Shown here one piece after another: positions 1-14,530 of a DNA stretch of 16,860 nucleotides; position 1 is the first letter of the stretch, and each line of letters opens with the position of its first letter. The notes beneath the pieces are model-generated. The model worked only from the letters and a program-made list of their open reading frames with translations, had not been told where the DNA came from and did not search any database. Origin of the DNA: Promethearchaeota archaeon (GTDB lineage Archaea > Asgardarchaeota > Lokiarchaeia > Sigyniarchaeales > SOKP01); assembly GCA_048938895.1 (NCBI GenBank), contig JBHLLU010000072.1, forward strand, positions 1-16,860, given 5' to 3'. A program made the translations under genes and the position numbers.

Positions 1-387
1 CACCCAAAAGACCATAAATCTTTTGAGTGGGAAGTTCCTCCTAAACAGGGTCATTTTGGGGCTATTCATAGAGTAGATGAAGATATTGGTGGGATCACCA
101 CTACATTAAGAATCAGATGGGAAGATCCAAGTAGTTCACCAATACCTGTTGAGTTTGATCACATAGTAGCGGCGAGTGTACTTGATGATGATGACAATCC
201 AACCAGTTGGTTATTACATGAATATAAATCTATTGAAAATGGAGTAAAGTTACGCTCAACGTTTCGATTACCTGCTAGAGCTCCCAAACAGTTTATCGAA
301 GCGTTACGTAAGCATAACATTGAAGAGATAGGTGAATTTATAAACTTTTTACCAAAGTTGTATGAAGAAAATAAAAGTTCAAAGTAA
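1..387 (+). CDS. DAPG hydrolase (PhlG) family protein, 5'-truncated by window edge
   Basis: Not in the ORF track. Frame +1 is open from base 1 to TAA at 385-387: HPKDHKSFEW...GAIHRVDEDIGG...WLLHEYKSIENGVKLRSTFRLP...ALRKHNIEEIGEFINFLPKLYEENKSSK*. It matches, from memory, the PhlG-family motifs (W)HPxxH, HxxxExIG, HxxxxxxxGxxxRSxF and HxxxExxxxxxFLPxLY, which carry the His/Glu metal ligands. Confidence 0.8.
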   Translation, partial: HPKDHKSFEWEVPPKQGHFGAIHRVDEDIGGITTTLRIRWEDPSSSPIPVEFDHIVAASVLDDDDNPTSWLLHEYKSIENGVKLRSTFRLPARAPKQFIEALRKHNIEEIGEFINFLPKLYEENKSSK

Positions 388-416
388 AAATATAGACACC
401 TTTTGTAATAATATAG

Positions 417-435
417 AAAAAAGAAAAGATTTTTT
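417..435. terminator. Putative bidirectional oligo(T) terminator between convergent genes
   Basis: An A-rich tract AAAAAAGAAAA (417-427, T-rich on the - strand) and T6 (430-435, + strand) lie between the stops at 387 (+) and 449 (-). Archaeal intrinsic terminators are oligo-T tracts. Confidence 0.4.
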
Positions 436-448
436 ATATAATTATATG

Positions 449-1096
449 CTAAAGTTTTGCTTCTTCTTCAATCTTTATTGTTTCTGCCTTTTCCTCGACT
501 TTTTGGATTGATTGAAGAATCTTTTCGTGATAAGCACGTTCAATTTCTACAATTTTTTTAAGAACATTTTGCATTGTCTCAAGCTTCTTTTTATTGAATT
601 CTTCCGTGGCCATTTTTACATCCGCTTCTTCTTTAGCGGCTTTTTCTTGCGCAGCCTTCAATTTACTTTCAGCAGTTTCTAACTCATTTGGTTTTAGCTT
701 TTCTTTTGGTTTACTTTTTGACTTATTTAGGCTTTTTTCTGCCTTTTCAAGCTCTTTTGCTGCTTTTTCAGATTCACTTTGCTCTGTTTGGAGTTTTTTC
801 AAGTTAACTACAAGATCATTCAATGGTGCGATGTATTCATCTCGAAGTTTTGTTACTTTATCTAAACGTTCTTTTTCAATAGCTTCAAAAGTGTTTGCTA
901 ATGAACTTATTGCTTGTCCCAAAGAGGGAGTTTCGGTTTCAGCATAACTTTTTAATGCAGTAACAGAATCCTTAATTTCTTTGGAAACAGTTTCTTCTGC
1001 ATTGATATATCGATTACTCTCTTTGATTATTTCACTGATTTTATTATTTGCGATTCCCAAAGAATCGGATACATTATCTAAAAACTTTTTAAACAC
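449..1096 (-). CDS. BAR-domain-like three-helix coiled-coil protein (FAM92/CIBAR-like)
   Basis: 215 aa with all-helical heptad character. LKSYAETETPSLGQAISSLANTFEAIEKERLDKVTKLRDEYIAPL and FNKKKLETMQNVLKKIVEIERAYHEKILQ resemble recalled human FAM92A segments (INAYAATETPHLKLGLMNFADEF...[41 protein letters not shown]). The GTG start is preceded by AGGTGA (1108-1103) with 6-nt spacing. Confidence 0.75.
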   Translation of the reverse strand: MFKKFLDNVSDSLGIANNKISEIIKESNRYINAEETVSKEIKDSVTALKSYAETETPSLGQAISSLANTFEAIEKERLDKVTKLRDEYIAPLNDLVVNLKKLQTEQSESEKAAKELEKAEKSLNKSKSKPKEKLKPNELETAESKLKAAQEKAAKEEADVKMATEEFNKKKLETMQNVLKKIVEIERAYHEKILQSIQKVEEKAETIKIEEEAKL

Positions 1097-1363
1097 GATA
1101 TTTCACCTTTTACCGAATTTCAGTTAGAATAAGAAGTCAAGCTTAATAATTTTTTTGTCTAAAAATTATAAGCTGGGAAAAAATAGTGATAAATTATTTT
1201 GATACATTTTTCTACTCAAATTTTTATTAGTAAACTATAATCAATATTTTAAGAAAGAACTTGATAAATAGACTAGAACAGATATTATATTCATATAAAT
1301 ACCTATAAAATAATAACTTCAGTTGGGAGTGTAGTTACTAGTAATAAAAGAGGTTGTTTAAAT

Positions 1364-4300
1364 TTGAGAATGTTAGTTTTAAGTCATCGGAGTTCGTATT
1401 TCTCACCATCTATATTTTTAAAAATGCCTGAAACAATTCAGAGAGAAGACATCAATCAGGTTCCATTATTAATTGATATTTATGAAAAAGGTTTTTTTAT
1501 ACATACGTTTGGAACGTTTAAAACAGCAAATCTAATTTTTAACATCCCAAGTGAATATTCAAAAACAGGAAGTGAACGTCTTTTAATTTCATTAGTTGTT
1601 GATAGTGATGCTAAAATCAAATCGACGTTAGCTGAAGACTATTTAGAAGGTATAGTGGAAGAAATCAAAAAAATTAAAGATATTTTCAAAGCATTCTACG
1701 TAGATTCTATGTTTGATAAAGGAGATCCTATTAAATTTGGGGAATTAAAAAAATTGCTTGAAGTATTTTATAATTCTTTTTCTGAAGAAGAGGTCATATT
1801 TGAGCAGAAAGAGGCGAGAGTATTAATTTTCGGGCTTTCTCAAGCAGGAAAAACAACAATCATTAAAACCCGAAGAAAATCTGTAACAAAAACAACTTTT
1901 CCAACTATAAATGTGGACATCTCAAAAATTATAGTCAATAATGTATCTATGTTAACCTATGATATTCCTGGAAAGTATAAAGCGAAAGAAATTTGGAAAC
2001 CCTATCTTAAAAATCAGGATGGATTGATTTTTGTTTTGGATGTTACGGACACCATAAGATTTTCATATGCTCGTGAACTATTGCATGAAATTGCTGAGAA
2101 ACCAGGATTAAGCGAGTTGCCACTCCTAATCCTTTTTAACAAGACTGATAGAAAACGAGTAGATATAAAAGATCTAGAAGAAGCTATGGGTGTAAATGAT
2201 CTCAGATATAGACCCATGAAAACATTTTTGACTAGTGGGATTATGAATCAAAATATTGATGAGGCGTTTAATTGGCTTTCATTAAAAATTGCTGAACGAG
2301 CAGAATTATATACTCCCCGAACAGAAATTGGGTTAATTTTTTGCAAATGGGATGAAAATTTAGGGATTAAAATCGAAGCAGTGTATCCTAAAAATGCTTT
2401 TGAAAATCCTGAATTGATTTCTGTTAAGAGTTTTTCAATATCACAGTATCTTTTTGGTGGTGATGTATTTAGGCCAACCTCAGTAATTCTTCCATTTCCA
2501 CACCTAAAATCAAATGCAGCGATCTATTTTGATTCTGTTTCAGACGAAAGTATTAGGGGTGGAGCATTACCGTTATCCTTAATAGTTTATTACAATGAAA
2601 AAATTCCTAAAAACATAATTAACCAATTTAGCGCATTCATTCTTAAACATTTTGAAGACATAAAAAATAATTATCTAGATAAAAATCAGGTTATAAATAT
2701 TCTTGAGACTATCCATAGTGCTATAAATCATCAAATAAGTATATATCAACCATCGATTGAAGCACTTAAAACAGCAGAATTGCGTTATGAAGCTTTGTTT
2801 AAAGCTGCTCGCGATGCAATTTTGATAATAGATAGAAAATCAGGCATTATTATGGATGTGAACCAAGAAGCAGAACAATTATTTCAACGACCTTTTGAAG
2901 ATTTTATTGGATTGCACTCAAGTCAAATATTAAGTGGTATCATTGACATTGATTTTAACGAGGAAGTCTTTGAACAGCTTAATTATCCCTTTCCATTGAG
3001 GTTAGAAGTCATTGATAATGCAGGAAATTTAATTCCTGTTGAAATTAACCTGAGTGAAGTTCAAATAGGAGGTCAAATTTATATTCAATATATTATTCGA
3101 GATATTCGTAAGAGAATAGAAGCAGAAATTAAATTGAAGCATTCTGAAATAAAATATCGTTATCTCTTTAAAGAATCGCCTTATTCTGTTCTACTTATTG
3201 ATCCTAAAGGTGCTTTGGTAGATTTTAATCCTGTTTTAGAGAAAACATTAGGATATGTAAGAGAGGAATTAATCGGAAGAAAATTTGTAGATCTTTCAAT
3301 TATACATCAAGATTATATTGTCGATGTTCTTAGAAGATTGAAAAAAGAAGAAAGAGGCAAGCAATTTCCTCCATTAGAAATCCAAATTTATCAAAAAAAT
3401 GGTAATCTTATTTGGGTAAATATGCAAACTTCTTTTGTCGATATTGGTGATGATACTTTTTATCAAATTATTTGTCAAAACATAACTGAAGAGAAAAAAA
3501 TTGAGCAGGAACTAATGAAGATTTCAAGGTTTAAAGCGATTATTACAGCAATTACATCAAGGTTTGTAGGAATACAGGATTTTAGTCAAGCCATTATTGA
3601 ATCACTTAGAGATATAGGTGAATTTGTAAACGCAACGCGAGTCTATCTTTATATTCTCAATGAAAATTTTAATTTCATAAAAAGAAATTATGAATGGTAT
3701 AGAAAAGTTATGCATCCTCAAATATCTTTACCTGAAAATATAGAGATGAATAATTTTCCTTGGTTAACAGAGAAACTGTTAGAATCTGATTATTTGTATG
3801 TGAAAAGTGTAGACTACCTTCCTACAGAAGCGGTTAATTTGAAATATTTTCTTGAAAATCAAAGAGTGAAGAATCATTTAACCTATTCAGTAAAAATAAA
3901 TGGAATCTTAGAAGCATTAATCTGTTTTGATGATATTAATGATAGGGATTATTGGATTGAAGAAAATCTTGATTTAATAGGCATAATTTCAGACATTTTG
4001 AAAAATGTATTATTACGAAAATTAGCAGAAGAGTATTTACGCGTAAGTGAAGAAACTATTCATCAAGAATTTGATAGAGAGTATTTTTACAAGGAATTAT
4101 TTGTTAATGATATGAATTCTATCATAAACAACATTCAATTATCACTAAACGAATATGAAACGGTTGATAACCAACTTATATTGAAAAGTAAAAAAGAGAT
4201 ATTGGATTCAATTAAGGATCAATGCATTAACAGCAAATTTTTAATAGATATAATACATAAATTAACAATCTTAGACCAAACAAAATTCTTAATTGAGACC

Positions 4301-4735
4301 GTAAATTTAAATAATGTCATAAGTGATGTTAAGGAATTTATCACAAATAGTTATTCAAGTAAAAAAATTATTATAAATGTAGAACAACCTCCTGAAATTC
4401 TTTATGTAAAAGCAGATAAATTTCTAATTGATGTTTTTGTCAATATACTTATGAGTTCTATTAGATATAATATCAATCCAACTATTGAACTTAAAATTAT
4501 CGTCTTTAGAAGCTCACAGGATAAAATAAATTATATTAAAGTTGAATTCATCGATCACCAAAAAGAAATTCTTAATATCGGAAAAGATATGATCTTCAAA
4601 AAGGAAAGAGAAAAGGATAGTAAGATAAAAGAAATAATATTAGGATTTTTATTAGTTGAAAAAATTCTAAATAACTACAATGGCAAAATTTGGGTTGAAG
4701 GAGATTCCTTTGTTATATTATTACCTGAAGCTTAA
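1364..4735 (+). CDS. Multidomain signalling protein: longin/uDENN-like + Arf-like small GTPase + longin/uDENN-like + 2xPAS + GAF + degenerate histidine kinase (HisKA/HATPase_c)
   Basis: GTPase at aa ~150-310: G1 GLSQAGKTT, G2 PTI, G3 YDIPGK, Arf-like IWKPY and GLIFVLD, G4 NKTD, AFNWLS. Residues ~321-460 carry IFCKWDENLGIKIEAVYP...DESIRGG..LSLIV. PAS domains at aa ~471-583 (RYEALF..ARDAILIID...VN...RDI) and ~594-710 (KYRYLF..SP...LID..G...FN...LGY.REELIG...NIT). GAF at aa ~735-885 (RVYLY...EW...FPW...W.EE..DL). Kinase-like tail at aa ~900-1123 ending GKIWVE...FVILLPEA. TTG start with GAGGT 9 nt upstream; alternative ATG at 1370. Confidence 0.88.
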   Translation: MRMLVLSHRSSYFSPSIFLKMPETIQREDINQVPLLIDIYEKGFFIHTFGTFKTANLIFNIPSEYSKTGSERLLISLVVDSDAKIKSTLAEDYLEGIVEEIKKIKDIFKAFYVDSMFDKGDPIKFGELKKLLEVFYNSFSEEEVIFEQKEARVLIFGLSQAGKTTIIKTRRKSVTKTTFPTINVDISKIIVNNVSMLTYDIPGKYKAKEIWKPYLKNQDGLIFVLDVTDTIRFSYARELLHEIAEKPGLSELPLLILFNKTDRKRVDIKDLEEAMGVNDLRYRPMKTFLTSGIMNQNIDEAFNWLSLKIAERAELYTPRTEIGLIFCKWDENLGIKIEAVYPKNAFENPELISVKSFSISQYLFGGDVFRPTSVILPFPHLKSNAAIYFDSVSDESIRGGALPLSLIVYYNEKIPKNIINQFSAFILKHFEDIKNNYLDKNQVINILETIHSAINHQISIYQPSIEALKTAELRYEALFKAARDAILIIDRKSGIIMDVNQEAEQLFQRPFEDFIGLHSSQILSGIIDIDFNEEVFEQLNYPFPLRLEVIDNAGNLIPVEINLSEVQIGGQIYIQYIIRDIRKRIEAEIKLKHSEIKYRYLFKESPYSVLLIDPKGALVDFNPVLEKTLGYVREELIGRKFVDLSIIHQDYIVDVLRRLKKEERGKQFPPLEIQIYQKNGNLIWVNMQTSFVDIGDDTFYQIICQNITEEKKIEQELMKISRFKAIITAITSRFVGIQDFSQAIIESLRDIGEFVNATRVYLYILNENFNFIKRNYEWYRKVMHPQISLPENIEMNNFPWLTEKLLESDYLYVKSVDYLPTEAVNLKYFLENQRVKNHLTYSVKINGILEALICFDDINDRDYWIEENLDLIGIISDILKNVLLRKLAEEYLRVSEETIHQEFDREYFYKELFVNDMNSIINNIQLSLNEYETVDNQLILKSKKEILDSIKDQCINSKFLIDIIHKLTILDQTKFLIETVNLNNVISDVKEFITNSYSSKKIIINVEQPPEILYVKADKFLIDVFVNILMSSIRYNINPTIELKIIVFRSSQDKINYIKVEFIDHQKEILNIGKDMIFKKEREKDSKIKEIILGFLLVEKILNNYNGKIWVEGDSFVILLPEA

Positions 4736-4866
4736 ATAGGTGTCTAAATAGAAATTTATTCTTATTTTCTTGCGTTAGATTTAAAATCGTATATTGCTTA
4801 TATTTACAATGCTGTATACAAAAATGTCGTTGATTAAGACATTTAAATTTAAAGAAGGTGATAAAA

Positions 4867-5385
4867 ATGGAACAAAAAATGATGGATATCAATTCCAAAT
4901 TTGATGAATTACTGGAAGATCTAACAGAATCTTTACCCAAACAAATGCCTGCTGGTTGTGCTGAAGCAACCCTGAGAAATATATTAAAAGTACTAAATAT
5001 CGAGGATAATTTGATAAATAATATAATGGTGCCTTTATCAGGGGGATTAGGAGGCTATAAATCTGAAGAAGGGTGGTTTGGTCCCTGTGGAGCTGTGGTC
5101 GGAGGTTGTGCTGCAGTAGGGGCAATTTTGGCAGGAAAAGAACCCATGACGCAAGATGTAGTCATGCCGGCTTATATGAAATCTGCTCAATTTGCAAAAG
5201 AATTTGAGAAGGAATTCGGTACAGTTCTCTGTCCAAATTTATCTGGTTATGATTTTAGTGACCCCGCTGCCATGATGGAATATATGAAAGAGAATGTATG
5301 GGGAAAGAAGTGTTATAAGTATGTTCTTTGGGCTATTGATAATGTAAGAAAAATGATGAGTACAGAATTAAAAAAGAATTGGTAA
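4867..5385 (+). CDS. C_GCAxxG_C_C family putative redox-active protein
   Basis: Family pattern GCAEA...GGLG...GPCGAVVGG...FGTVLC...KKC. I moved the start from GTG 4858 (ORF track) to ATG 4867 because that GTG is part of the AGGTGA Shine-Dalgarno (4856-4861), 5 nt upstream of the ATG. Confidence 0.85.
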   Translation: MEQKMMDINSKFDELLEDLTESLPKQMPAGCAEATLRNILKVLNIEDNLINNIMVPLSGGLGGYKSEEGWFGPCGAVVGGCAAVGAILAGKEPMTQDVVMPAYMKSAQFAKEFEKEFGTVLCPNLSGYDFSDPAAMMEYMKENVWGKKCYKYVLWAIDNVRKMMSTELKKNW

Positions 5386-5404
5386 TCTTAACTAAACTAA
5401 ACCA

Positions 5405-5411
5405 TTTTTTT
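5405..5411 (+). terminator. Putative oligo(T) terminator
   Basis: T7 tract about 20 nt after the stop at 5385. Confidence 0.4.
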
Positions 5412-5482
5412 ATCTATATCCTTATTAACTCAATTCAATTATAATCAAATTAGGATCTTATTAGAAATTAAGGTGAAATTAA

Positions 5483-6520
5483 ATCACAGAAAATCAAAAA
5501 GTCACTAAAAAATCCCCTTTTGCAAATCTACTAACGTATATAGCAGGAAAAACTTATACACATGTAATATCTGTTGCCGCTAAATTGAATATTGCAGATT
5601 TACTAGCCAACGGATCAAAGTCAGTAGATGAACTCTCTATTGCCACAAAGACTCATGCTCCAAGTCTTTATCGAGTTTTACGAGTTTTGGATCGTATGGG
5701 TATATTTTTTGAAGAATCACCAGAAATTTTTTCATTAACAGAGGCTTCAGAGTTCCTAAAGACAGATTCTCCTTTTTCTGTAAAAGATTGGGCTATATTA
5801 AATGGTAGTGAATGGCACAGTAGATCTTGGATGAATCTTTTATATAGTGTAAAAACTGGGAGGCCTTCTTTTTGGGAAATATATGGAATGAAAGGTTTTG
5901 AATATTTTCAAAAGAATCAAGAAGATTATGAAGTTTTAAGTAAAGCGATGACGTTTTTCTCCAAAGGTCAAGCAAGACGAATAGTAAATTCCTATAATTT
6001 TTCTAATTTCAGAACTATCGTGGATATAGGAGGTGGGAATGGGTATCTTTTAGCAGCGATCTTAAAGAATAATCCCTCACTTAGGGGTATCCTATTTGAG
6101 TTACCCGAAGTGGTTGACGGAGCACGAGAAATACTAGAAAAGGAAAATTTATTAGACAGGTGTAGTATTATGGCAGGTGATTTCTTTCAAAGCGTTCCTA
6201 AAGGAGCAGATGCGTATATAATGAAATATATTATGCATGATTGGAGTGATGAAAATGCAAGAAAAATTTTACAAAACTGCAGAGAAAACATCGCTCCTGA
6301 TGGTAAGTTATTAGTTGTTGATAAGGTAATCTCTTTAAAGAATGGACTAAACGATGAAATAATGGGAGATATTGAAATGATGATACTTGGAGAAGGACGT
6401 GAACGTACAGAAGGTGAATTTCGAGAATTGTTTTATAGTGCTGGATTTAAATTGACTAAAATTATACCCACTGATTTACCTTTATTTATTATCGAAGGTG
6501 AAAGTATGAAATACTCTTAA
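5483..6520 (+). CDS. SAM-dependent O-methyltransferase (Methyltransf_2 plus N-terminal dimerisation wHTH; ASMT/CrtF/COMT-like)
   Basis: SAM motif VDIGGGNG, plus ILFELPEVV, GDFF..VP.GADAYIMKYIMHDW and G.ERT..EF..L...AGF. The ORF track starts at TTG 5585, but the frame is open from 5483 and encodes the conserved helix LLTYIAGKTYTHVISVAAKLNIADLL. The start is placed at ATC 5483 after AGGTGA (see findings). Confidence 0.9.
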   Translation: MTENQKVTKKSPFANLLTYIAGKTYTHVISVAAKLNIADLLANGSKSVDELSIATKTHAPSLYRVLRVLDRMGIFFEESPEIFSLTEASEFLKTDSPFSVKDWAILNGSEWHSRSWMNLLYSVKTGRPSFWEIYGMKGFEYFQKNQEDYEVLSKAMTFFSKGQARRIVNSYNFSNFRTIVDIGGGNGYLLAAILKNNPSLRGILFELPEVVDGAREILEKENLLDRCSIMAGDFFQSVPKGADAYIMKYIMHDWSDENARKILQNCRENIAPDGKLLVVDKVISLKNGLNDEIMGDIEMMILGEGRERTEGEFRELFYSAGFKLTKIIPTDLPLFIIEGESMKYS

Positions 6521-6571
6521 GGATCCTCTAGTATTGTAAAATCAATTCAGAGAAAAGAGGCTTGAAAATAT

Positions 6572-7669
6572 TTATCCTTGATTAATAAATGCTGCTTTTC
6601 TCATAACTTTTTCATTTGAGAATTTTGTTAATAGACTGTTTATCTCATTTAACTGTTGAGCATTAACTTTTAAAGATTTGATTGCTCCTGCATCGAGTAT
6701 CTTTCTAAAAAGATCATCCCCTTTCTTAGTACGGGTTATAACCGTTGTAAATTTATCAGGAGACCCTAAGCCGCCAAATGAAATGTCAGCATATATATTA
6801 GTAAAATCATTACAGGCATTACATGCAGATCGCATATAGTTATTTAATTTTTCAAAGGGAATATGAAGAGTCTTCCCATTCCTCAATTTTATGATTAAAT
6901 CTTCTTTAATATTGATTTTTTCAACATCTTCAAATTTGATTTTAAAATTATTTTCAAATTGTTCACTTTTAGCTTTATCAAAGAAGAAATTCTCATAACA
7001 AAATAAACCAAGGCACAAATCAATATTTTGTGAAGGAATTATTCCCAAATCTTGCATGCAGCGTATTGTATAAATTTGACAGGGTGTTCCCACAATTGCA
7101 AGCCTATCAAACTTAATTTTTTTCAACTCTGAGATGGAACTAGTGTATGTATGGAATTTTTGCACTTCTGTTACTTGGTGAGCTAAATCTAATCTAACTC
7201 CAGATGAATCAATTAGATCTTTTCTGTTCTTAGCAATACTAGACTCTCTCGAGAATGCAGTTTTAGTTTTTGCTACAATCGCTCCATCAATCATCTTTCT
7301 TTCTAATAAAAAATTAATGAATGTATTAACAACTCCTCCATCAATTCCACACTCCAGAAATTCTGGATCATTCGTTTGACAAATATAAAGATTTCTAATA
7401 TGACCTAAAGGCATCGATGAAAAATCTGAAAAATTATAAATCTCGTCAAGATCATCATCTAAAAAATGTGTTTGTGGACAAATTGCATAACAAATCCCGC
7501 ATTCAAGGCAGCTGTCTTCGTTCAAAAATTCTGGGGGGCCTCTAGAGGTTTTAAATCCAATTACTCCACTTTCAATAGCGTTACAAAAGCTTACACATCC
7601 CCCACATTCTTGGCAAATGCCTTTATTATGTACTTCTGTGATTAAATCTCTAAAGTTTTTAATAGTCAT
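6572..7669 (-). CDS. Coenzyme F420 hydrogenase/dehydrogenase beta-subunit family protein (FrhB/FdhB/FpoF-like) with N-terminal 2x[4Fe-4S] ferredoxin domain
   Basis: CQECGGCVSFC and CLECGICYAICP ferredoxin motifs, followed by the FrhB signatures DGGVV, IDGAIV, AIVGTPCQI, LGLFCYENF, CNACNDF...ADISFG and VITRTKKG. Confidence 0.92.
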   Translation of the reverse strand: MTIKNFRDLITEVHNKGICQECGGCVSFCNAIESGVIGFKTSRGPPEFLNEDSCLECGICYAICPQTHFLDDDLDEIYNFSDFSSMPLGHIRNLYICQTNDPEFLECGIDGGVVNTFINFLLERKMIDGAIVAKTKTAFSRESSIAKNRKDLIDSSGVRLDLAHQVTEVQKFHTYTSSISELKKIKFDRLAIVGTPCQIYTIRCMQDLGIIPSQNIDLCLGLFCYENFFFDKAKSEQFENNFKIKFEDVEKINIKEDLIIKLRNGKTLHIPFEKLNNYMRSACNACNDFTNIYADISFGGLGSPDKFTTVITRTKKGDDLFRKILDAGAIKSLKVNAQQLNEINSLLTKFSNEKVMRKAAFINQG

Positions 7670-7758
7670 TTAAAAAATTATCTAAATTTCCCAGTATTTT
7701 TTTGATTATATAAATAGTGTATTTAATTTATAGATTATGGACTCTGCTGTTATATGAA

Positions 7759-7795
7759 ATTTATAAAAATTGGTATTATTAGAATTTTTGTAAAT
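7759..7795. promoter_or_regulatory. Inverted repeat (13-bp arms, 11-nt spacer) in divergent promoter region; candidate operator
   Basis: ATTTATAAAAATT (7759-7771) matches the reverse complement of AATTTTTGTAAAT (7783-7795), which is ATTTACAAAAATT, at 12/13 positions. The AT-rich context lowers significance. Confidence 0.35.
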
Positions 7796-7839
7796 ATATA
7801 TATTTCTTTTTAACTTAATTTAATCTACCAAATCCAATT

Positions 7840-8058
7840 GTGAGTAAATTGAGAATAGAATTTGATGAAGCACTAGAGCTTTGTGAACAAGTTCGACTTG
7901 ATAATAAAAATAAACGACTTTCCTTTAACAAATTATGGTGTTGGGGCTGTTTAAAGTTCGCTAAAAGCCCTGATAAACGATGTTTCGCAAATGCAGAATA
8001 CGGAGCTAATACTGGCTGTGCACAAGTAAATAAATTGTACAAAAAATTAATGGAATAA
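7840..8058 (+). CDS. Small Cys-rich hypothetical protein (probable metal binding)
   Basis: 72 aa, GTG start, five Cys in the pattern ALELC...WCWGC...KRCF...GCAQVN. It has protein-like composition, fills an otherwise empty gap, and is divergent from the FrhB-like gene. Confidence 0.7.
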   Translation: MSKLRIEFDEALELCEQVRLDNKNKRLSFNKLWCWGCLKFAKSPDKRCFANAEYGANTGCAQVNKLYKKLME

Positions 8059-8085
8059 AGCTATAATTATGAACTCAAGCCGTAC

Positions 8086-8129
8086 AATTATGTCAAATTG
8101 AAATGTATATAAAGTCAATTAACATAATT
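8086..8129. promoter_or_regulatory. Imperfect inverted repeat bracketing a TATA-like box
   Basis: AATTATGT (8086-8093)/ACATAATT (8122-8129) and AATTGA (8096-8101)/TCAATT (8115-8120) flank TGTATATAAA (8104-8113), about 50 nt upstream of ATG 8162. Confidence 0.35.
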
Positions 8130-8195
8130 CTTATAAGAATCCATTATTAGAGGGAAGTAAAATGAATGAATTAAGTAAGGTAGATGATGTAATTT

Positions 8196-8423
8196 ATGTA
8201 TTTCAGAGAACAAGAACGACAATTACTTAGAAATATTGATGGAGAGCTCAAGAATCCTCATCCATCTAAAGAACGTATTATAAATTGTTTATATGATTTA
8301 CGCACTAAAGAGAATTTCCAAGATCTTTCTGATTCAAAATTCTATAATATTTTCTTTCTACTAGGTACAATTTGTATTATAACAGTTATCTTGAGTAAAA
8401 AATTCAAAAGTTTGAAAGTATAA
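8196..8423 (+). CDS. Hypothetical small protein with C-terminal hydrophobic segment; possibly frameshifted (true start 8162)
   Basis: 75 aa ending IFFLLGTICIITVILSKKFK, which looks like a TM segment plus basic tail. There is no RBS before 8196, whereas GAGGGA-6nt-ATG lies at 8150-8164 in another frame. Confidence 0.45.
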   Translation: MYFREQERQLLRNIDGELKNPHPSKERIINCLYDLRTKENFQDLSDSKFYNIFFLLGTICIITVILSKKFKSLKV

Positions 8424-8475
8424 TATTATATTTAAAGAATTTTTAAAATTATCACAAAAAAAGAGCGAAAAGAAA

Positions 8476-9552
8476 ATGAAATTAGAAATTAAAAAAAAAA
8501 TAATAATCTTATTCACTTTGGGTATCTTTTTCGTGTTTTCACCTATAATTACTGGAGTGCTTAGTTTCCCTAAGAATACCTCACACAATTGTCTAGAGCT
8601 TAAAGATAATGTTTGTATCAGCAATGAAGATTTAAAAATCTCAGAAAAGATCCATATAAATAATAATTGGACCGATGCTAAAGCAGCGGGAATCTGTACG
8701 GGTAATGGGACTTATTCTGCTCCCTATATTATAGAGAATCTGATAATAGATGGAAGAGGTTTTGGAAGTTGTATTTTAATCGAACATTCTACTGCCGTAT
8801 TCATGATTCAAAACTGTGTTTTATTTAACTCAACAGGACAATGGGACGCTGGAATTCTACTGAATTATGTCAATAATGGGTTCTGTATTGATAATGATTG
8901 TTCTTCTAATTATTATGGGATTCGGCTAAGATTTTGCTATGATTCGGTAATTGCTAATAACTCTCTAGAAAAAAATATTGATGGGATATACTACGAATAT
9001 GGAGCTAATAATACTATTTCAGGTAATAAAATAAGATCTAACAATCAAGATGGAATAGATATAAGTGTTGGATTTTATAGTCAGATATCCAAAAATAGTA
9101 TAATCGATAATGGTAATAGAGGAATATTTTTAGTTAGTGTACTTTGCCATGATAACAACATTACAGATAACTTAATTAAAAGGAATGGTTTTGATTTTGG
9201 GATGGAAGGATTGTATATATTAGATGGTGTCTTTAATTTTATCTACCACAATTGTTTTGTTCGTAATTATTTAAATGCTCATGATAGAGGATCGAATAAC
9301 AGTTGGGATAGCGGAGTGATGGGGAATTATTGGAACAATTACACAGGCTCTGATGAAAATCATGACGGTATTGGTGATATATCCTATAATATAATTGGTT
9401 CTGCGGGAAGCAAGGATAATTTTCCGTTAATGAAATGTCCGTTTTCAATAATAGATGATAAAGCAATTTTCAGTTATGATCTCATATTTCTAATCGGAGT
9501 ATTATCTGTTGTATCATTTATTCTAATTAAAAAACGCAAGGATGTGTTATAA
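8476..9552 (+). CDS. Secreted/cell-surface right-handed parallel beta-helix protein (NosD/CASH-like) with Loki-CTERM-like C-terminal anchor
   Basis: N-terminal basic plus hydrophobic signal (MKLEIKKKIIILFTLGIFFVFSPII); GNGT...PYIIENLIID; repeated GIxL...NxIxxNxIxxN units; GNYWNNYTGSDENHDGIGD (Ca-binding-like). The C-terminus AIFSYDLIFLIGVLSVVSFILIKKRK is motif + TM + basic tail. Many N-x-S/T sequons. Confidence 0.88.
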   Translation: MKLEIKKKIIILFTLGIFFVFSPIITGVLSFPKNTSHNCLELKDNVCISNEDLKISEKIHINNNWTDAKAAGICTGNGTYSAPYIIENLIIDGRGFGSCILIEHSTAVFMIQNCVLFNSTGQWDAGILLNYVNNGFCIDNDCSSNYYGIRLRFCYDSVIANNSLEKNIDGIYYEYGANNTISGNKIRSNNQDGIDISVGFYSQISKNSIIDNGNRGIFLVSVLCHDNNITDNLIKRNGFDFGMEGLYILDGVFNFIYHNCFVRNYLNAHDRGSNNSWDSGVMGNYWNNYTGSDENHDGIGDISYNIIGSAGSKDNFPLMKCPFSIIDDKAIFSYDLIFLIGVLSVVSFILIKKRKDVL

Positions 9553-9567
9553 TTAGCAATAAAGCAA

Positions 9568-9574
9568 TTTTTTT
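9568..9574 (+). terminator. Putative oligo(T) terminator
   Basis: T7 tract about 15 nt after the stop at 9552. Confidence 0.35.
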
Positions 9575-9618
9575 AATTCAATTATATAAGTTTAAAGAAG
9601 ATTTGATTAATTACAATC

Positions 9619-10515
9619 ATGAAAGAAGATTCTGCTTTATTATTGAAGAAATCTTATGAAAAAGGTGAGAAGATAAGTACAGAAGAAACTCAAAAAATGC
9701 TTAAGCAATCAGATCTTATAAAAATGCTTTTAGAACCACCTAAACGTCCTCCTACTACATTTGTGGGCATTCGTGCCCTCGAATGGCGCTTATTAGAACT
9801 TTCAGAAATACCATTTTCATATACCTTAAACGAAGTACAAAATTGGATTAAAATTCTCGTAGAAAAGTCATTTATACAAGAAGGCTTTTCCTTGGAAGGG
9901 ACTAAAGACAATTTACTTGCATGCCACAATTCACTGATAACTACAATCCTTTTAAAGATGCCATATGACGATAAAGAAAAAATCGATGCAGGGATAGATT
10001 GGATATTAAAATATCAATCAATTGAGAGGGGAAAAGAATGCACTTGGCCAGGTAAAGACCTTTACACTAGGTTTGGGGGTTGCATGAAAAAAATTCCTTG
10101 TTATTATGGCGTAATCAAGGCCATGATCACACTTACTGAGTATAAGAAACGGTATGGTGACTCTGATGAGCTCAATAACAAACTTTCACAAGGATTAGAA
10201 TATATCCTAAAACATAGAGTGTTTATGAAATTATCTTCAGATAATCCGATAGAAGATTCAATTATCTTAAATTTTTACCCTTATACCTATAGATCGAACA
10301 TAATAGAAATATTATCATTACTTAAAGCAAATAATTTACTTAGAGATGAACGCTGTAATGATGCTTTAAAGATTTTAAAAAAAAAACAACGATCTGATGG
10401 ATACTGGCAGGCCGATACTTCTTACATGAAATCTACATGGATAGATTTCGATATACCTAAGAAACCGGGATTATGGATAACATTCATAATAAAAAAACTA
10501 TTTACATCCAAATAA
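9619..10515 (+). CDS. Conserved hypothetical protein, terpenoid cyclase/prenyltransferase-like alpha-alpha barrel superfamily
   Basis: PFTB/squalene-cyclase-like repeats IDAGIDWILKYQ, LSQGLEYILKH and DALKILKKKQRSDGYW. Family-like motifs LACH, GGCM...PCYYG..K, YPYTYRSNIIEIL, DER and KPGLWIT. No DxDD cyclase motif. Confidence 0.65.
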   Translation: MKEDSALLLKKSYEKGEKISTEETQKMLKQSDLIKMLLEPPKRPPTTFVGIRALEWRLLELSEIPFSYTLNEVQNWIKILVEKSFIQEGFSLEGTKDNLLACHNSLITTILLKMPYDDKEKIDAGIDWILKYQSIERGKECTWPGKDLYTRFGGCMKKIPCYYGVIKAMITLTEYKKRYGDSDELNNKLSQGLEYILKHRVFMKLSSDNPIEDSIILNFYPYTYRSNIIEILSLLKANNLLRDERCNDALKILKKKQRSDGYWQADTSYMKSTWIDFDIPKKPGLWITFIIKKLFTSK

Positions 10516-10578
10516 TAATATTAAAATTACAAATTATCAAATTTAGTAATAATTCGAAATCCCATCAGAATTAACGGA

Positions 10579-11421
10579 GTGATTAGAATTCCAATATTCA
10601 TAAAAAATGGTATCAAAATCAATTATGTAGAACAAGGAGAGGGTGAACCTCTCGTATTAGTTCAGGGATATTGCTGTAAATTAGAGAGTTGGAATTATCA
10701 AATATCGTTTTTTAGCAAGAAAATGAAGGTTATTGCATTAGATCTTCGAGGTTTAGGGAAGAGTTCAAGAACAGATGATTCTTATACGATACACACCTTT
10801 GTAGAGGATATTAAAGATCTATTGGAGTATTTAAATATAAAAGAACGAATCCATCTATGTGGTTTTAGTAATGGAGGGACCATTGTTGAATCATTTGTGC
10901 TAAAATATCCAAATTTAGTAAAAACTCTCATGCTTTTTGGAACTGCTGCAGATATTCCTGATGAGGAATATGAACAACAGCTTAAATTGCTCGATCAGAA
11001 TTTTAAAGAATATACGCCAGAGCAGTTGATCGATATTACACTTCCTATTATGTTCTCAACTTCATTTCGGAGGAAATTAAGGAAAGATGAAAAACTATTT
11101 GAATTATACAAAAACGACATGGGTTTAGTTGCTCACTTGAGGGATCCTCCGCGATACCAGGATTATGTCAACCATTGGAAAGCGATTAAGAATTTTGACG
11201 TTCGAAAGTTATTACCTTCAATTACTCAACCAACACTAATACTTGTTGGTTCTAAAGATCAAGGCAACTTGATGGCATCCAAAGATATGCATGAAAAAAT
11301 AAAAAATTCCACTATGGAAGTACTTGAGGGAATCGGACATGGTTTAATAATCGAAGCACCAGAAAAAACTAACGAACTAATGTGGAATTTCATAAAAGGA
11401 CATTTAGATCAAAAAACATAA
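10579..11421 (+). CDS. Alpha/beta fold hydrolase (enol-lactonase/MenH-like)
   Basis: NGIKINY..QGEGEPLVLVQG, ALDLRGLGKS, nucleophile GFSNGG (GxSxG), PTLILVGSKD (acid) and GIGHG (His) give a complete triad. The start may be ATT 10588 (see findings). Confidence 0.93.
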   Translation: MIRIPIFIKNGIKINYVEQGEGEPLVLVQGYCCKLESWNYQISFFSKKMKVIALDLRGLGKSSRTDDSYTIHTFVEDIKDLLEYLNIKERIHLCGFSNGGTIVESFVLKYPNLVKTLMLFGTAADIPDEEYEQQLKLLDQNFKEYTPEQLIDITLPIMFSTSFRRKLRKDEKLFELYKNDMGLVAHLRDPPRYQDYVNHWKAIKNFDVRKLLPSITQPTLILVGSKDQGNLMASKDMHEKIKNSTMEVLEGIGHGLIIEAPEKTNELMWNFIKGHLDQKT

Positions 11422-11432
11422 TTTTAGTGACA

Positions 11433-11439
11433 TTTTTTT
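11433..11439 (+). terminator. Putative oligo(T) terminator
   Basis: T7 tract about 12 nt after the stop at 11421. Confidence 0.35.
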
Positions 11440-11464
11440 AAATAAAACAGCATTTCTTTATTGA

Positions 11465-12757
11465 ATGAACGTTCCTGCAATACTTTTGATCTTAATTTTG
11501 TTTGCTATTCTGATGGCTTTCTTTTCACAAAATAAGATCGATTATTTTCCTATTGCATTAATTATAGGAGCAGTTGCAGTGGTTTCAATGCTCATTATTG
11601 GTGTGAAAGAACAAGAGATTCTTGGATTTATCAATTTTAGCACCTTAATCTTCATATTTGCTATTCAAATTATCATTTTTTATGCAACAGATGACCATGT
11701 ATTAGAATATGTAGCCATTAAAGTAATACATCTAACAAAAGGGAATAATAGATTATTCTTCTATATCATTTGTTTATTTACTGGGATAATCGTAGCGTTC
11801 ATAGAGGATCTTACCTTATCGTTAATTTTAGTTCCGTTGATATTCCGAACTTGCAGAGTATTAAAGATACCTGCAGGAACCTATATGATGGGAATGACAA
11901 TTACTATAAATATTGGGGCAATTCTTACGCCAATCTCAAGTTTAAAGAACTTGATAATTGGAGAAGAATTTGGATGGGGATTTGGCGAGTATTTCGCAAA
12001 TATGGGAATTTTGTTTGCGATAGCATTAATATCTACCATTTATTTGATGGATAGATTAATAATTAGGAAAGAACAGAAACCAACAGAGGAGGATAAGAAT
12101 ATCCTTTTATCAGTATTGGATCCAAGGATTTTAATAGAGAATAAAAAATATTTTTTAACGACAATCATCATTATCTTAGCCACATTTGCGTTGATGATCA
12201 TAGGATTAGATCCAGCCCTGGTTGCTATTATAGCAGCAGCTATTCTTCTTCTTATTCACTCTAAGAAATCAACTTTTGCAGAAATAAAAAATGAAATAAC
12301 CTGGAGAATCCTAATTATATTCGCGATTTTATTTATCCTATCGAATTCTCTAGCTAGTTTTGGATTTTCAGAATTGATCTCTTCAAGCTTAGCAGATTTG
12401 TCAGGTAATAACCTCTTTCTTGCAGTATTGATAACCCTAGGTCTTTCTTCTTTATTATCGGCATTCCTTGCAGGTACTCCAGTTACAATTATCCTTCTTC
12501 CAATAATTGCAAGTTTTATTGGTGAAGGCTTTTTTCCCAATCCCATCATAATTGCTTTCATAAGTGGGGTAAATATGGCGGGAAATTTCTTACCACAAGG
12601 TTCAGCATGCGATCTCCTTACACTTTCAATGGCAAGAAAATATAATGTAGTTAATTTAGATTATAAACGCTTATTAAAAAATGGATCTTTTTTCGCAACG
12701 ATTCATTTCCTAATAATCTTAGGGTATACTATGATTTACATTTTAATATTAGGTTAA
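11465..12757 (+). CDS. Ion-transporter (IT) superfamily permease (ArsB/NhaD/CitMHS/SLC13, P-protein-like)
   Basis: 430 aa with about 11-13 hydrophobic segments in two repeats, and family motifs AFIEDLT..LILVP, NIGAILTPIS..KNLII, LLSAFL...P...ILLPII and GVNMAGNFLPQGSA. Confidence 0.88.
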   Translation: MNVPAILLILILFAILMAFFSQNKIDYFPIALIIGAVAVVSMLIIGVKEQEILGFINFSTLIFIFAIQIIIFYATDDHVLEYVAIKVIHLTKGNNRLFFYIICLFTGIIVAFIEDLTLSLILVPLIFRTCRVLKIPAGTYMMGMTITINIGAILTPISSLKNLIIGEEFGWGFGEYFANMGILFAIALISTIYLMDRLIIRKEQKPTEEDKNILLSVLDPRILIENKKYFLTTIIIILATFALMIIGLDPALVAIIAAAILLLIHSKKSTFAEIKNEITWRILIIFAILFILSNSLASFGFSELISSSLADLSGNNLFLAVLITLGLSSLLSAFLAGTPVTIILLPIIASFIGEGFFPNPIIIAFISGVNMAGNFLPQGSACDLLTLSMARKYNVVNLDYKRLLKNGSFFATIHFLIILGYTMIYILILG

Positions 12758-12768
12758 GATCAAAAATG

Positions 12769-13299
12769 CTAAGAAATTGTTGACTTAATGTTACTTACCA
12801 TACTTTTCGTAAGGTCCAGAAATGCTTTTTCTACATTATCACCTGTTTTTGCAGAAGTTTCCTTATATAAACACTTTTCACTTTTTGCGTAATTTTCAGC
12901 TTCAGTTCTGTCTACTATTTGACCGATTTCAGGAATTAAGTCAGATTTATTTCCAATTATAACTTTAGGGATGTCCTTATTCATAATACTACGCATTTCT
13001 GATAACCACGTTTTCATGCCGGAATAAGTATGCTGTCTTGAGAGATCAAATACGATTAGAGCACCTTGAGCACCTTCAAAAAAGCTACGATGCAAGAATT
13101 TAAACCTTTCTTGCCCACCAATATCCCAAATGTGGAGTTTTGCGATTTTTGAAGGTTCATATTCAAGAGTTTTAGTTAAAAAATCAACCCCTATAGTCAT
13201 TTTATATTTTAATTCAAATTCATTATGGACGAACCGGTTTAATAAGCTGGTTTTACCAACTGCACTAGGACCGACAATAATTACTTTAAAGGCTTCCAT
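12769..13299 (-). CDS. Rab-like small GTPase (Ras superfamily)
   Basis: FKVIIVGPSAVGKTS (G1), TIGVDF (G2/RabF1), KLHIWDIGGQERF (RabF2/G3), FFEGAQGALIVFDLS (RabF4/F5-like), GNKSD (G4), ETSAKTG (G5). No C-terminal Cys or hypervariable tail. Confidence 0.95.
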   Translation of the reverse strand: MEAFKVIIVGPSAVGKTSLLNRFVHNEFELKYKMTIGVDFLTKTLEYEPSKIAKLHIWDIGGQERFKFLHRSFFEGAQGALIVFDLSRQHTYSGMKTWLSEMRSIMNKDIPKVIIGNKSDLIPEIGQIVDRTEAENYAKSEKCLYKETSAKTGDNVEKAFLDLTKSMVSNIKSTIS

Positions 13300-13452
13300 A
13301 TCACACTAACATCAGTTTTTTCCTTAGATCTATAATCATACATTATATTTTTAAATTTAATTAAAAGTGAATTAGTTGTTTTAATAAAAAGAGTTTTAAA
13401 GGAAAATTATCATTAATGGATTAAAATTTAATAATAAATCGGATATGATTTT

Positions 13453-14394
13453 ATGGAAGTACAAATAGGAAAAATGATATTGTATGGGATTCTTTCTGCA
13501 GTATTTTACCTTGTGGTCCCATTAGTATTATTTGAAATTCTTCAAGCCTATGATATTATGACATTCAGTGCTACTTATAAAACTGCGATTATAATATTTG
13601 GAATAATAGGTGTTGCGTTTTCAATGGCAAGACATCTATTTCCAAAGAATACTCCGGCAAATAAATTAGTTGCTTTTGGGGCTGTAGTGTACTCAGGCAT
13701 TTATCTGTTCTATATGTTTGGTGGATTTACTCCAGGTGTATCTCTAGGGACTTATCGAATAGACATCCCTGGTTTATTACAGGTTTTATTAGGATTGCAA
13801 TTAATTGCGTGGTTATTATTAGCGTCCTCCGGAATTAGAGCTCTACAATATTTAATAGAGGCCCTAGAGCTTCGCGGGGAAAAAGAATACTCCGTAACTG
13901 TAAGAAAAAAGTTTAAACTTAGCATGCTATTTAAAATCCTTGGGATAATAATGAGTTTAGGTATTGCAGGATACTTTGGTTCACTGGTTTATAGTGGTAT
14001 GAATCTCGATTTTAATTTGGGCACTTTTTCTCCCGGAATTGATACTCAAGGAACCCCAAGTCCGGCTGATGATACTTTAACAAATGTAACGATATCATTT
14101 GATGTGGACAATCAAGGATTATATGCTATTTATGACATTAAGATAGATTTTTATCTATATAATATATCAGCTGTCCCTGCAGTTAAAATTGGTGAGAGTT
14201 TAAATAATGATTTTGGTACATTTCACTCCTTTAGTTCACAACTTAATAATGAGGTCACTGTAGATATAGTCCCAGCTATTTTGTTTGCAAATGCTTCAAC
14301 TACAGATGTGGAATTTAAAATAAATTTTTCAACATTGTACGCTGGAATTTTTGTGGATTTGAATATTTCCTTTGAATTTAACCTAATTCCTTAA
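13453..14394 (+). CDS. Hypothetical membrane protein (about 5 TM helices plus C-terminal beta-sandwich-like domain)
   Basis: Four hydrophobic segments at aa ~8-135, a charged linker, a fifth TM at aa ~156-180, then alternating beta-strand patterns (NVTISFDVDNQGLYAIYDIKIDFYLY; VEFKINFSTLYAG) with N-x-S/T sequons, reminiscent of LEA_2/Ig-like folds. Confidence 0.8.
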   Translation: MEVQIGKMILYGILSAVFYLVVPLVLFEILQAYDIMTFSATYKTAIIIFGIIGVAFSMARHLFPKNTPANKLVAFGAVVYSGIYLFYMFGGFTPGVSLGTYRIDIPGLLQVLLGLQLIAWLLLASSGIRALQYLIEALELRGEKEYSVTVRKKFKLSMLFKILGIIMSLGIAGYFGSLVYSGMNLDFNLGTFSPGIDTQGTPSPADDTLTNVTISFDVDNQGLYAIYDIKIDFYLYNISAVPAVKIGESLNNDFGTFHSFSSQLNNEVTVDIVPAILFANASTTDVEFKINFSTLYAGIFVDLNISFEFNLIP

Positions 14395-14420
14395 ATCGTA
14401 ATTTAACTATTTTCCTTATC

Positions 14421-14428
14421 TTTTTTTT
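14421..14428 (+). terminator. Putative oligo(T) terminator
   Basis: T8 within a pyrimidine-rich run about 27 nt after the stop at 14394. Confidence 0.45.
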
Positions 14429-14530
14429 CTTAATATTAAAATTAGTCTCTCTTTAATAATTTAAAATATCACCAAGGGGTTGTTTTTTAATATAAGTGAG
14501 TAGTTTAGTATTGCTAGTGATCAAAAAAAT

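Follow-up and report, generated by a model that had tools for sequence, protein, structure and literature searches.

Two longin-type domains flank an Arf-like GTPase in an Asgard protein with PAS domains and a degenerate histidine kinase

Locus and domain order

The window analyzed here (the whole stretch of 16,860 nucleotides; contig JBHLLU010000072.1 of GenBank assembly GCA_048938895.1, positions 1 to 16,860, forward strand) comes from a Promethearchaeota archaeon (GTDB lineage Archaea; Asgardarchaeota; Lokiarchaeia; Sigyniarchaeales; SOKP01) and has a G+C content of 25 to 34%. It carries a gene (1364..4735, forward strand) whose product is an Asgard (Promethearchaeota, Loki-type) signaling protein. 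Pfam, NCBIfam, and AlphaFold2 gave its architecture as longin, Arf-like GTPase, longin, helix, PAS, PAS, GAF-like region, and degenerate histidine kinase. A preliminary description of the sequence had placed two longin/uDENN-like domains around the GTPase and proposed them as a built-in regulator, with Arg398 as a possible arginine finger. The first 470 residues, referred to here as the module, are the main subject of this report; publications are cited for the portions accessible to us. Residues are counted from the TTG codon at 1364, and all four strings quoted in the preliminary description are present in this translation. The features of the module are as follows (coordinates, strand, feature, basis).

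1364..4735, +, whole open reading frame (ORF), 1,123 amino acids (aa), TTG start; ORF list and translation
1364..1789, +, N-terminal longin (N-longin), aa 1-142; AlphaFold2 strand-helix order, block pLDDT (predicted local distance difference test) mostly 78-92
aa 3-22, +, MLVLSHRSSYFSPSIFLKMP; translation
1403-1408, +, Ser14-Pro15, at the Gly-Pro (GP) motif of the family; motif table, 121 homologs
aa 59-79, +, FNIPSEYSKTGSERLLISLVV; translation
1562-1567, +, Lys67-Thr68, at the ARG loop of the family; motif table, 121 homologs
1799..2311, +, Arf-family GTPase, aa 146-316; Pfam Arf at aa 146-307
1973-1975, +, Lys204 in place of the catalytic Gln; aligned with Arf1 Gln71 (the Gln of DVGGQ)
2312..2680, +, C-terminal longin (C-longin), aa 317-439; AlphaFold2, Foldseek, and VIA matches
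2327-2389, +, IGLIFCKWDENLGIKIEAVYP, aa 322-342; translation
2348-2353, +, Trp329-Asp330; C-longin motif
2363-2365, +, Gly334; C-longin motif
2528-2590, +, FDSVSDESIRGGALPLSLIVY, aa 389-409; translation
2555-2557, +, Arg398; β4-β5 loop 394-400, between strands 383-393 and 401-411
2681..2770, +, long helix from the C-longin to the first PAS domain, aa 440-469; continuous helix 440-469 in AlphaFold2

Each of the 30 sequences in the N-domain alignment has a start codon at the column of position 1, which supports the TTG start; the first 20 residues were also conserved. The placement of the GTPase between two longin-type flanks was borne out: the Pfam Arf match (aa 146 to 307; E, 7.8e-37; 126.8 bits; cutoff, 22.3) was bordered on both sides by a longin order of strands and helices in the AlphaFold2 model. 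No Pfam match was obtained for aa 1 to 145 or 318 to 470, and NCBIfam agreed with the Pfam domain calls.

A search with aa 1 to 470 returned 133 proteins (E ≤ 1e-3; best E, 1e-116), nearly all of which spanned the 470 residues, and identity to the query was 42 to 96% among the matches listed (120 of 133). Named relatives were all Asgard archaea (labels Promethearchaeota, Loki-, Hod-, Thor-, Hermod-, and Odinarchaeota), and the public cluster names of 10 relatives were uninformative (i.e., "hypothetical" or "ADP-ribosylation factor-like"). The module was located at 64 Asgard loci in a scan of one genome per species. Invariant positions in an alignment of 38 rows included the GTPase G-motifs and, in the C-terminal flank, W329, G334, P342, Q361, P377, A385, F389, D390, and R398.

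Other arrangements were also seen. Three distant loci (L066, L067, and L069; 37 to 42% identity) matched aa 1 to 311 only, i.e., N-longin and GTPase with no detectable C-longin. In the 632-aa protein P0153, the N-longin is joined directly to the C-longin, the GTPase domain being gone after its first strand; P0153 is also truncated at its N terminus, and either a natural deletion or an assembly artifact is possible.

AlphaFold2 was run on aa 1 to 470 with the 38-row alignment and on the C-terminal flank alone (aa 317 to 445) with a 31-row alignment. The first model (mean pLDDT, 79.6; predicted template modeling score [pTM], 0.45) is confident within the single domains but not about how they are placed relative to one another; pLDDT dropped below 50 in the linkers (141-148 and 314-316). 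The flank modeled alone reached a pLDDT of 87.5 and a pTM of 0.83. Both flanks were predicted to run strand-strand-helix-strand-strand-strand-helix-helix without an N-terminal helix, in agreement with the longin definition of PMC10933270. The predicted elements were strands 2-8 and 16-21, helix 28-39, strands 43-48, 52-62, and 70-80, and helix 87-102 in the N-terminal flank, and strands 322-330 and 334-341, helix 349-364, strands 372-378, 383-393, and 401-411, and helix 416-435 in the C-terminal flank. The label "longin/uDENN-like" is therefore apt for the fold of both flanks, but no DENN domain follows and uDENN is true in the longin-fold sense only. Instead of the longin-then-DENN order of FLCN, FNIP, SMCR8, and C9orf72, the N-longin is followed by the GTPase and the C-longin by the helix and PAS domains.

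Two longins of one family

Foldseek searches of the PDB matched the C-terminal flank to GATOR1-KICSTOR (9v0j_A; E, 1.8e-4), SEAC (9h4q_T; 9.7e-4), the longin of a Lokiarchaeota roadblock-longin protein (8yqg_B; 1.0e-3), Lst4 (4zy8; 1.4e-3), GATOR1 (7t3b_B; 2.3e-3), and FLCN-FNIP2 (6ulg_N; 4.9e-3). The best match by VIA, an aligner independent of Foldseek, was 8yqg_B (Z, 12.2; root mean square deviation, 2.8; 118 aligned); others were 4zy8_C (Lst4; Z, 10.3), 6nzd_H (10.2), a CPLANE chain (9.7), 8fw5_B (9.6), 6ulg_N (9.6), and, from C9orf72-SMCR8 entries, 7o2w_A (9.1) and 6lt0. Matches are labeled by entry title, and chains were assigned to subunits by their lengths. The resemblance to C9orf72, NPRL2, and folliculin suggested in the preliminary description was recovered for the C-terminal flank at the level of structure (GATOR1, FLCN-FNIP2, Lst4, and C9orf72-SMCR8), but not by hidden Markov model (HMM) searches, which gave no significant link. 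Foldseek with the whole 470-residue model returned Arf/Arl chains only, including Asgard HodArfR1. A roadblock assignment for the C-terminal flank was considered and rejected: the flank has no N-terminal helix of its own, and longins aligned over 114 to 118 residues versus approximately 100 for roadblock chains, with Z scores that were close.

Both longins are members of one Asgard longin family and are paralogous, with Gly(-Pro) at the β1-β2 turn and Arg-Gly in the β4-β5 loop as hallmarks. A profile of the N-terminal flank, compared with 1.84 billion representative proteins, matched 486 (E ≤ 1e-3), in which the domain stood alone, preceded a GTPase or a PAS domain, or lay at the C terminus. 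Among 120 representatives of this N-longin family, G14, F45, N56, F59, R67, G68, and S76 were at least 90% conserved; 39 carried an Arf-type GTPase domain and 27 a PAS domain. The consensus (...LSYFD...GP..FL..P......ARG..E.LMIS) has Gly-Pro before strand 2 and Arg-Gly before strand 5.

The C-longin profile (A2) aligned with a profile of 28 stand-alone N-type longins (A5) in hhalign with a probability of 82.3% (E, 1e-5; 106 columns). In that alignment, W329-D330 corresponded to F-D, G334 to the Gly of GP, P342 to Pro, and R398 to the Arg of ARG. The C-longin profile further picked up two other longin-GTPase genes in this genome through their N-terminal longins (E, 4.8e-6 and 4.6e-5). The genome has 100 matches to the Arf model. 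In a local search, the profile gave weak matches to several N-type longins. Because the module is conserved in 133 proteins and at 64 loci and the flanks are related by profile comparison, their resemblance goes beyond chance. As leads only, the two flanks shared their nearest Promethearchaeota longin clusters in an atlas feature search (scores, 0.85 and 0.89), and in one of these clusters 19% of the members have Pfam NPR2. No stand-alone C-longin was detected at profile sensitivity among 5.8 billion proteins of 70 to 228 aa, where only three short pieces of the same family were found.

Arg398, Lys204, and regulation of the embedded GTPase

Longins of the GTPase-activating protein (GAP) type (FLCN, NPRL2, SMCR8, and C9orf72) carry two marks, an arginine finger and a GP motif immediately ahead of strand 2, both of which are missing from FNIP2, NPRL3, and non-GAP longins (PMC12290439). 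A loop arginine of this type before strand 5 is present in the C-longin studied here (Arg398) and absent from its N-longin (Lys67). The conservation expected of Arg398 was confirmed: the residue was Arg in 119 of 121 homologs (Ser in one, Lys in one) and in 57 of the 58 loci covering the site, and it aligned with the ARG arginine of the family, which is at least 90% conserved. Gly334 was invariant and is followed here by Ile, the next position being Pro in 4 of 38 rows. Trp329 was invariant in all 38 aligned rows, with one exception (P0021) in the table of 121 homologs. P0021 (locus L015:1952-1954) is also the sole homolog with Ser398; Ser thus replaces the two most conserved C-longin residues.

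The N-terminal flank had been described as the more degenerate of the two, and this was correct for the copy in the window, which has Ser14 and Lys67-Thr68 versus Gly and Arg-Gly in the family. Pro15 was retained in 37 of 38 rows, Gly14 in 20 of 38, and Arg67 in 75 of 120 scorable homologs; Y40, H47, N56, and F59 were invariant. Because Gly14 and Arg67-Gly68 are lost, this N-longin resembles the noncatalytic FNIP2 and NPRL3.

The best solved relative of the GTPase domain was Arf1 (E, 7.9e-25). The P-loop (GLSQAGKT), switch-I Thr181, DIPG, and NKTD motifs of the present domain are intact, and in place of the N-terminal amphipathic helix of Arf it is preceded by the 142-residue longin and a low-confidence linker. 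The catalytic Gln is replaced by Lys204, so that ordinary hydrolysis assisted by an arginine finger is doubtful in this copy. Position 204 was Gln in 27, Lys in 7, Tyr in 2, and His in 2 of the 38 aligned rows, Lys being shared by the clade of this copy.

The losses of Gln204 and Arg67 were compared across the family. All 61 homologs with Gln204 had Arg67, and of the 58 scorable rows without Gln204, 14 retained Arg67 and 44 did not. On a FastTree tree of 120 rows, Gln204 was lost four times and Arg67 twice, each time within a lineage already lacking Gln; the Gln-less background accounts for 6.3 of 21.7 branch-length units, and one sublineage (P0015 and P0018) carries both Gln and Arg67. Arg398, in contrast, was kept with or without Gln204, whereas the N-longin arginine was lost only in lineages that had earlier become Gln-less. 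By this sequence pattern, which is suggestive only, the N-longin arginine is at least as good a candidate for the ancestral finger. Since Arg398 is conserved irrespective of Gln204, catalysis is probably not its sole role.

One of the closest known systems is C9orf72-SMCR8(-WDR41), an ARF GAP in which two longins serve one Arf-family GTPase, as they may here. In that complex, ARF1 sits on the two longins, SMCR8 Arg147 is directed at BeF3, and the C9orf72 change W33G/D34K abolishes activity (PMC8213707); the essential W33-D34 of C9orf72 adjoins G38-P39 (PMC12290439). SMCR8 (G68-P69 and R147) and the N-longin of this family are both of the GP plus loop-Arg type, and C9orf72 (W33-D34...G38-P39) and the C-longin (W329-D330...G334) share the spacing W-D-x-x-L-G. 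The VIA range for 7o2w_A (model 3-129 to chain 23-178), approximate because it gives range ends only, is compatible with W329 on residue 33. Here, by contrast, longin, GTPase, and longin lie in one chain without DENN domains or WDR41, and the C-longin holds both the WD motif and the Arg. Moreover, the SMCR8-like longin of this copy lacks the Gly and the Arg, its GTPase lacks the Gln, and no relationship was found at the HMM level.

FLCN-FNIP2 (Lst7-Lst4) and the NPRL2-NPRL3 pair of GATOR1 (Npr2-Npr3 of SEACIT) are among the best structural matches of the C-longin and pair a catalytic longin (GP and Arg) with a noncatalytic one, as this clade appears to do. Their substrates, however, are Rag heterodimers in trans and the complexes are lysosomal, whereas the putative substrate here is an Arf-like domain in cis; the Pfam Folliculin and NPR2 models also miss both flanks at significance. 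MglA-MglB (a bacterial Ras-like GTPase and its roadblock-dimer GAP) resembles the proposed arrangement in that hydrolysis by a small GTPase is controlled by a roadblock/longin-superfamily dimer seated on it, but the two are separate proteins and the topology is roadblock rather than longin. MglB is not known to supply an arginine finger.

The best explanation as a whole, and the one toward which we lean, is that the two longins form a platform on which the embedded GTPase is held and controlled. By analogy with the SMCR8 and C9orf72 longins that cup ARF1, the pair would hold the Arf-like domain, with the invariant Trp329-Asp330, Gly334, and Arg398 of the C-longin as a putative contact to its active-site region. 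In the ancestor of the family, this platform may have accelerated GTP hydrolysis in cis, the loop arginine(s) supplying the finger. Because Gln204, Gly14, and Arg67-Gly68 are lost in this copy, its module is most likely a slow or nonhydrolyzing GTP-binding one: in this copy and its close clade, GTP would be bound and hydrolyzed slowly or not at all, and the module would serve as a nucleotide-dependent scaffold or sensor. Arg398 may now act in catalysis or merely in binding the phosphate or switch region. The C-longin, which the helix at aa 440 to 469 joins to the PAS domains, would signal the nucleotide state onward to the sensor/output half; from the model, this helix may be a signaling or dimerizing element.

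Several results weigh against a regulatory platform of this kind. Neither domain contacts nor an arginine reaching the nucleotide emerged from our results: no model placed Arg398 near the nucleotide, and interdomain confidence in the AlphaFold2 model of aa 1 to 470 was low (pTM, 0.45). Longin matches in the structure library concern the C-terminal flank alone, the N-terminal flank being tied to it by the hhalign probability of 82% obtained with its family, and roadblock chains came near longins for the C-terminal domain in VIA (3kye_A, Z of 9.3; MglB, 8.6 to 8.7). Direct hhalign comparison of the two flanks of the subfamily was weak (4%; E, 0.01), although the register was the same. HMM comparison of the N- and C-domain profiles, and of the broader profile A5, with sequences of solved structures gave no significant longin match. 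Pfam PF11704 (Folliculin) and PF06218 (NPR2) had no significant link to either flank by HMM. PF11704 matched 1 of 30 N-domains (E, 0.099) and no C-domain, and neither model matched any of the 120 wider-family members at E ≤ 0.001 or any of the 28 stand-alone longins at E ≤ 1. With regard to Gln204 and Arg67, an independent-pairs sign test was not significant (5 pairs; median p, 1), the independent events being few; in the wider family, the Arg is missing from 3 of 25 Gln-bearing fusions; and the Arg persists both next to degenerate GTPases and in GTPase-less longin-PAS proteins. A three-chain complex prediction (aa 1-142, 317-445, and 146-316) with GTP scored 0.01 and 0.00 versus a mark of 0.32; it had no controls and weighs neither way.

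Of the built-in regulator proposed in the preliminary description, the part concerning a longin pair is likely correct; for Arg398, the role of a working finger is no more than possible. It appears doubtful to us that the longins of this particular protein pair up as an intramolecular pseudo-dimer in which Arg398 accelerates GTP hydrolysis by the fused GTPase. The residue is conserved in 119 of 121 homologs, lies in the β4-β5 loop, and aligns with the ARG arginine. In the VIA match to 8fw5_B, which is presumably NPRL2 (by chain length; the aligner does not name it), the aligned range (model 4-129 to chain 6-130) brings model residue 82 (i.e., Arg398) near chain residues 80 to 85; the arginine finger of NPRL2 is Arg78. 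Arg398 is also the sole loop arginine remaining in this clade, with Lys67 in the N-longin, an arrangement that mirrors the eukaryotic pairs of catalytic and noncatalytic longins (PMC12290439). However, the catalytic Gln that usually partners an arginine finger is Lys204 here, the conservation of Arg398 regardless of Gln204 is not the pattern expected of a purely catalytic residue, and the AlphaFold2 model (pTM, 0.45) offers no geometry for it.

It is unlikely that the C-longin is mainly a dimerization domain pairing two chains of a dimeric sensor, with Arg398 and Trp329 as interface or structural rather than catalytic residues. PAS and kinase modules usually work as dimers, and the C-longin leads through a 30-residue helix into such modules. 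Its best VIA match, 8yqg_B (Z, 12.2), is a Loki longin that forms homodimers; further matches are roadblock homodimers and those Asgard Rag-like GTPases that carry C-terminal domains (9m28_A, Z of 8.1; 8yl2_A, 7.8), and Tran et al. (PMC10933270) model Asgard Rag-like GTPases as dimers through roadblock or longin domains. Nevertheless, the WD...G and RG motifs face the GTPase in C9orf72-SMCR8-ARF1 (PMC8213707; PMC12290439), those of the C-longin align with the same motifs of N-type longins, and dimerization and GTPase binding are compatible with each other.

Still less probable is a pair that is not a GAP but an exchange factor, or a reader or effector of the nucleotide state (cf. the TRAPP, Mon1-Ccz1, and DENN platforms): longin platforms are mostly exchange factors (PMC10933270; PMC12290439), chains of TRAPP, Mon1-Ccz1, CPLANE, BLOC-3, and DENND1 match the C-longin (Z, 7.5 to 9.7), and the module is still under selection in the Gln-less clade, but only GAP-type longins carry the GP and Arg motifs, which the longins of TRAPP, adaptin, and DENND lack (PMC12290439), and the top Foldseek matches are chains of GAP complexes.

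Output half, neighborhood, and significance

The remainder of the protein has the following features.

2783..3514, +, two PAS domains, aa ~474-590 and 593-717; Pfam, TIGR00229
4085..4729, +, degenerate histidine-kinase core; H-box ELFVND, weak HATPase_c at aa 1020-1122
4106-4108, +, Asn915 of the H-box ELFVND; His position in homologs

The PAS region was supported by Pfam PAS_9 (E, 2.4e-25), by PAS_8 at aa 474 to 514, and by the TIGR00229 sensory box (E, 1.1e-34) at aa 593 to 717. Judged by its sequence, the histidine-kinase core looks inactive in this copy. The HATPase_c match (20.6 bits) is under the Pfam cutoff of 26.4, the columns of the N-box (SSIRYN) and G1-box (IDHQKE) are not kinase-like, and Asn915 stands at the position of the phospho-acceptor His; the motifs of the ATP lid are gone as well. 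Among 107 long homologs, the H-box triplet carried His in 19 and Asn in 70.

No conserved operon partner of ORF 1364-4735 was found in the neighborhood comparison, in which the genes on either side, the BAR-like one upstream and the one downstream, recurred only at the closest locus, L009. The upstream ORF (449-1096, reverse strand; 215 aa) is divergent, i.e., in the opposite orientation to the GTPase gene. Its product is helical and rich in Lys and Glu and matched Pfam FAM92, a BAR-domain family (E, 3.3e-5; 23.9 bits; cutoff, 23.6); a BAR-like protein adjoining an Arf-like GTPase may merit separate attention. Elsewhere in the window, a separate Rab/Ras-like small GTPase of 176 aa is encoded at 12769-13299 on the reverse strand (Pfam Ras; E, 2e-49). 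The ORF at 14531-16858 on the forward strand, which runs past the window end, encodes DEAD_2 and Helicase_C_2 domains (XPD/Rad3-type helicase) preceded by an N-terminal extension of about 190 residues without a Pfam match.

The general outline of Asgard longin-GTPase fusions is already published. Zhu et al. 2025 (PMC11914678) noted N-terminal longins on Asgard Arfs and, in the portion accessible to us, reported no convincing Asgard homolog of the C9orf72 complex by Foldseek; the accessible text of Vargova et al. (bioRxiv, 10.1101/2024.02.28.582541) does not discuss such fusions. Longin- or roadblock-GTPase fusions and Asgard longins with GP and Arg (Tran et al. 2024, PMC10933270; PMC11914678; PMC12290439) share the outline seen here, but a second flank that is a paralogous GP/Arg-type longin, a PAS-kinase output, and the joint loss of Gln204 and Arg67 are undescribed in the accessible portions of these three papers. 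We found no publication on the longin-Arf-longin-PAS-kinase protein or on the Gln/Arg co-loss, although the supplementary data of PMC10933270, PMC11914678, and PMC12290439 could list the family.

A limitation is that in this copy the GTPase, N-longin, and kinase are all degenerate. The family nevertheless offers a compact construct of about 470 residues in which a longin-GAP mechanism is testable without a multisubunit complex, and its natural variants, which differ in whether they keep the catalytic Gln and the Arg of the N-longin, provide built-in controls. The regulators of Asgard Arf GTPases are said in PMC11914678 to "remain to be established," and PMC12290439, which notes that some Asgard longins carry the same GP and Arg, poses their GTPase clients as a question. 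By joining GP/Arg longins and an Arf-like GTPase in one gene, this fusion gives a Rosetta-stone answer; 39 of 120 N-longin family members are fused in this manner.

A bolder reading, which we put forward tentatively and regard as rather unlikely, is that the family preserves a one-chain prototype of the longin-pair GAPs of eukaryotes (C9orf72-SMCR8, FLCN-FNIP, and NPRL2-NPRL3), with paralogous longins encoded by one gene cupping an Arf-like GTPase in cis, and that the module of this clade is a nonhydrolyzing GTP sensor gating a PAS/pseudo-kinase scaffold. If this were true, the drift of the pair from two arginine-bearing halves to a "catalytic" and a "noncatalytic" one would be visible within a single family, and Arf-like GTPases would be named as the native clients of the GP/Arg longins of Asgard archaea.

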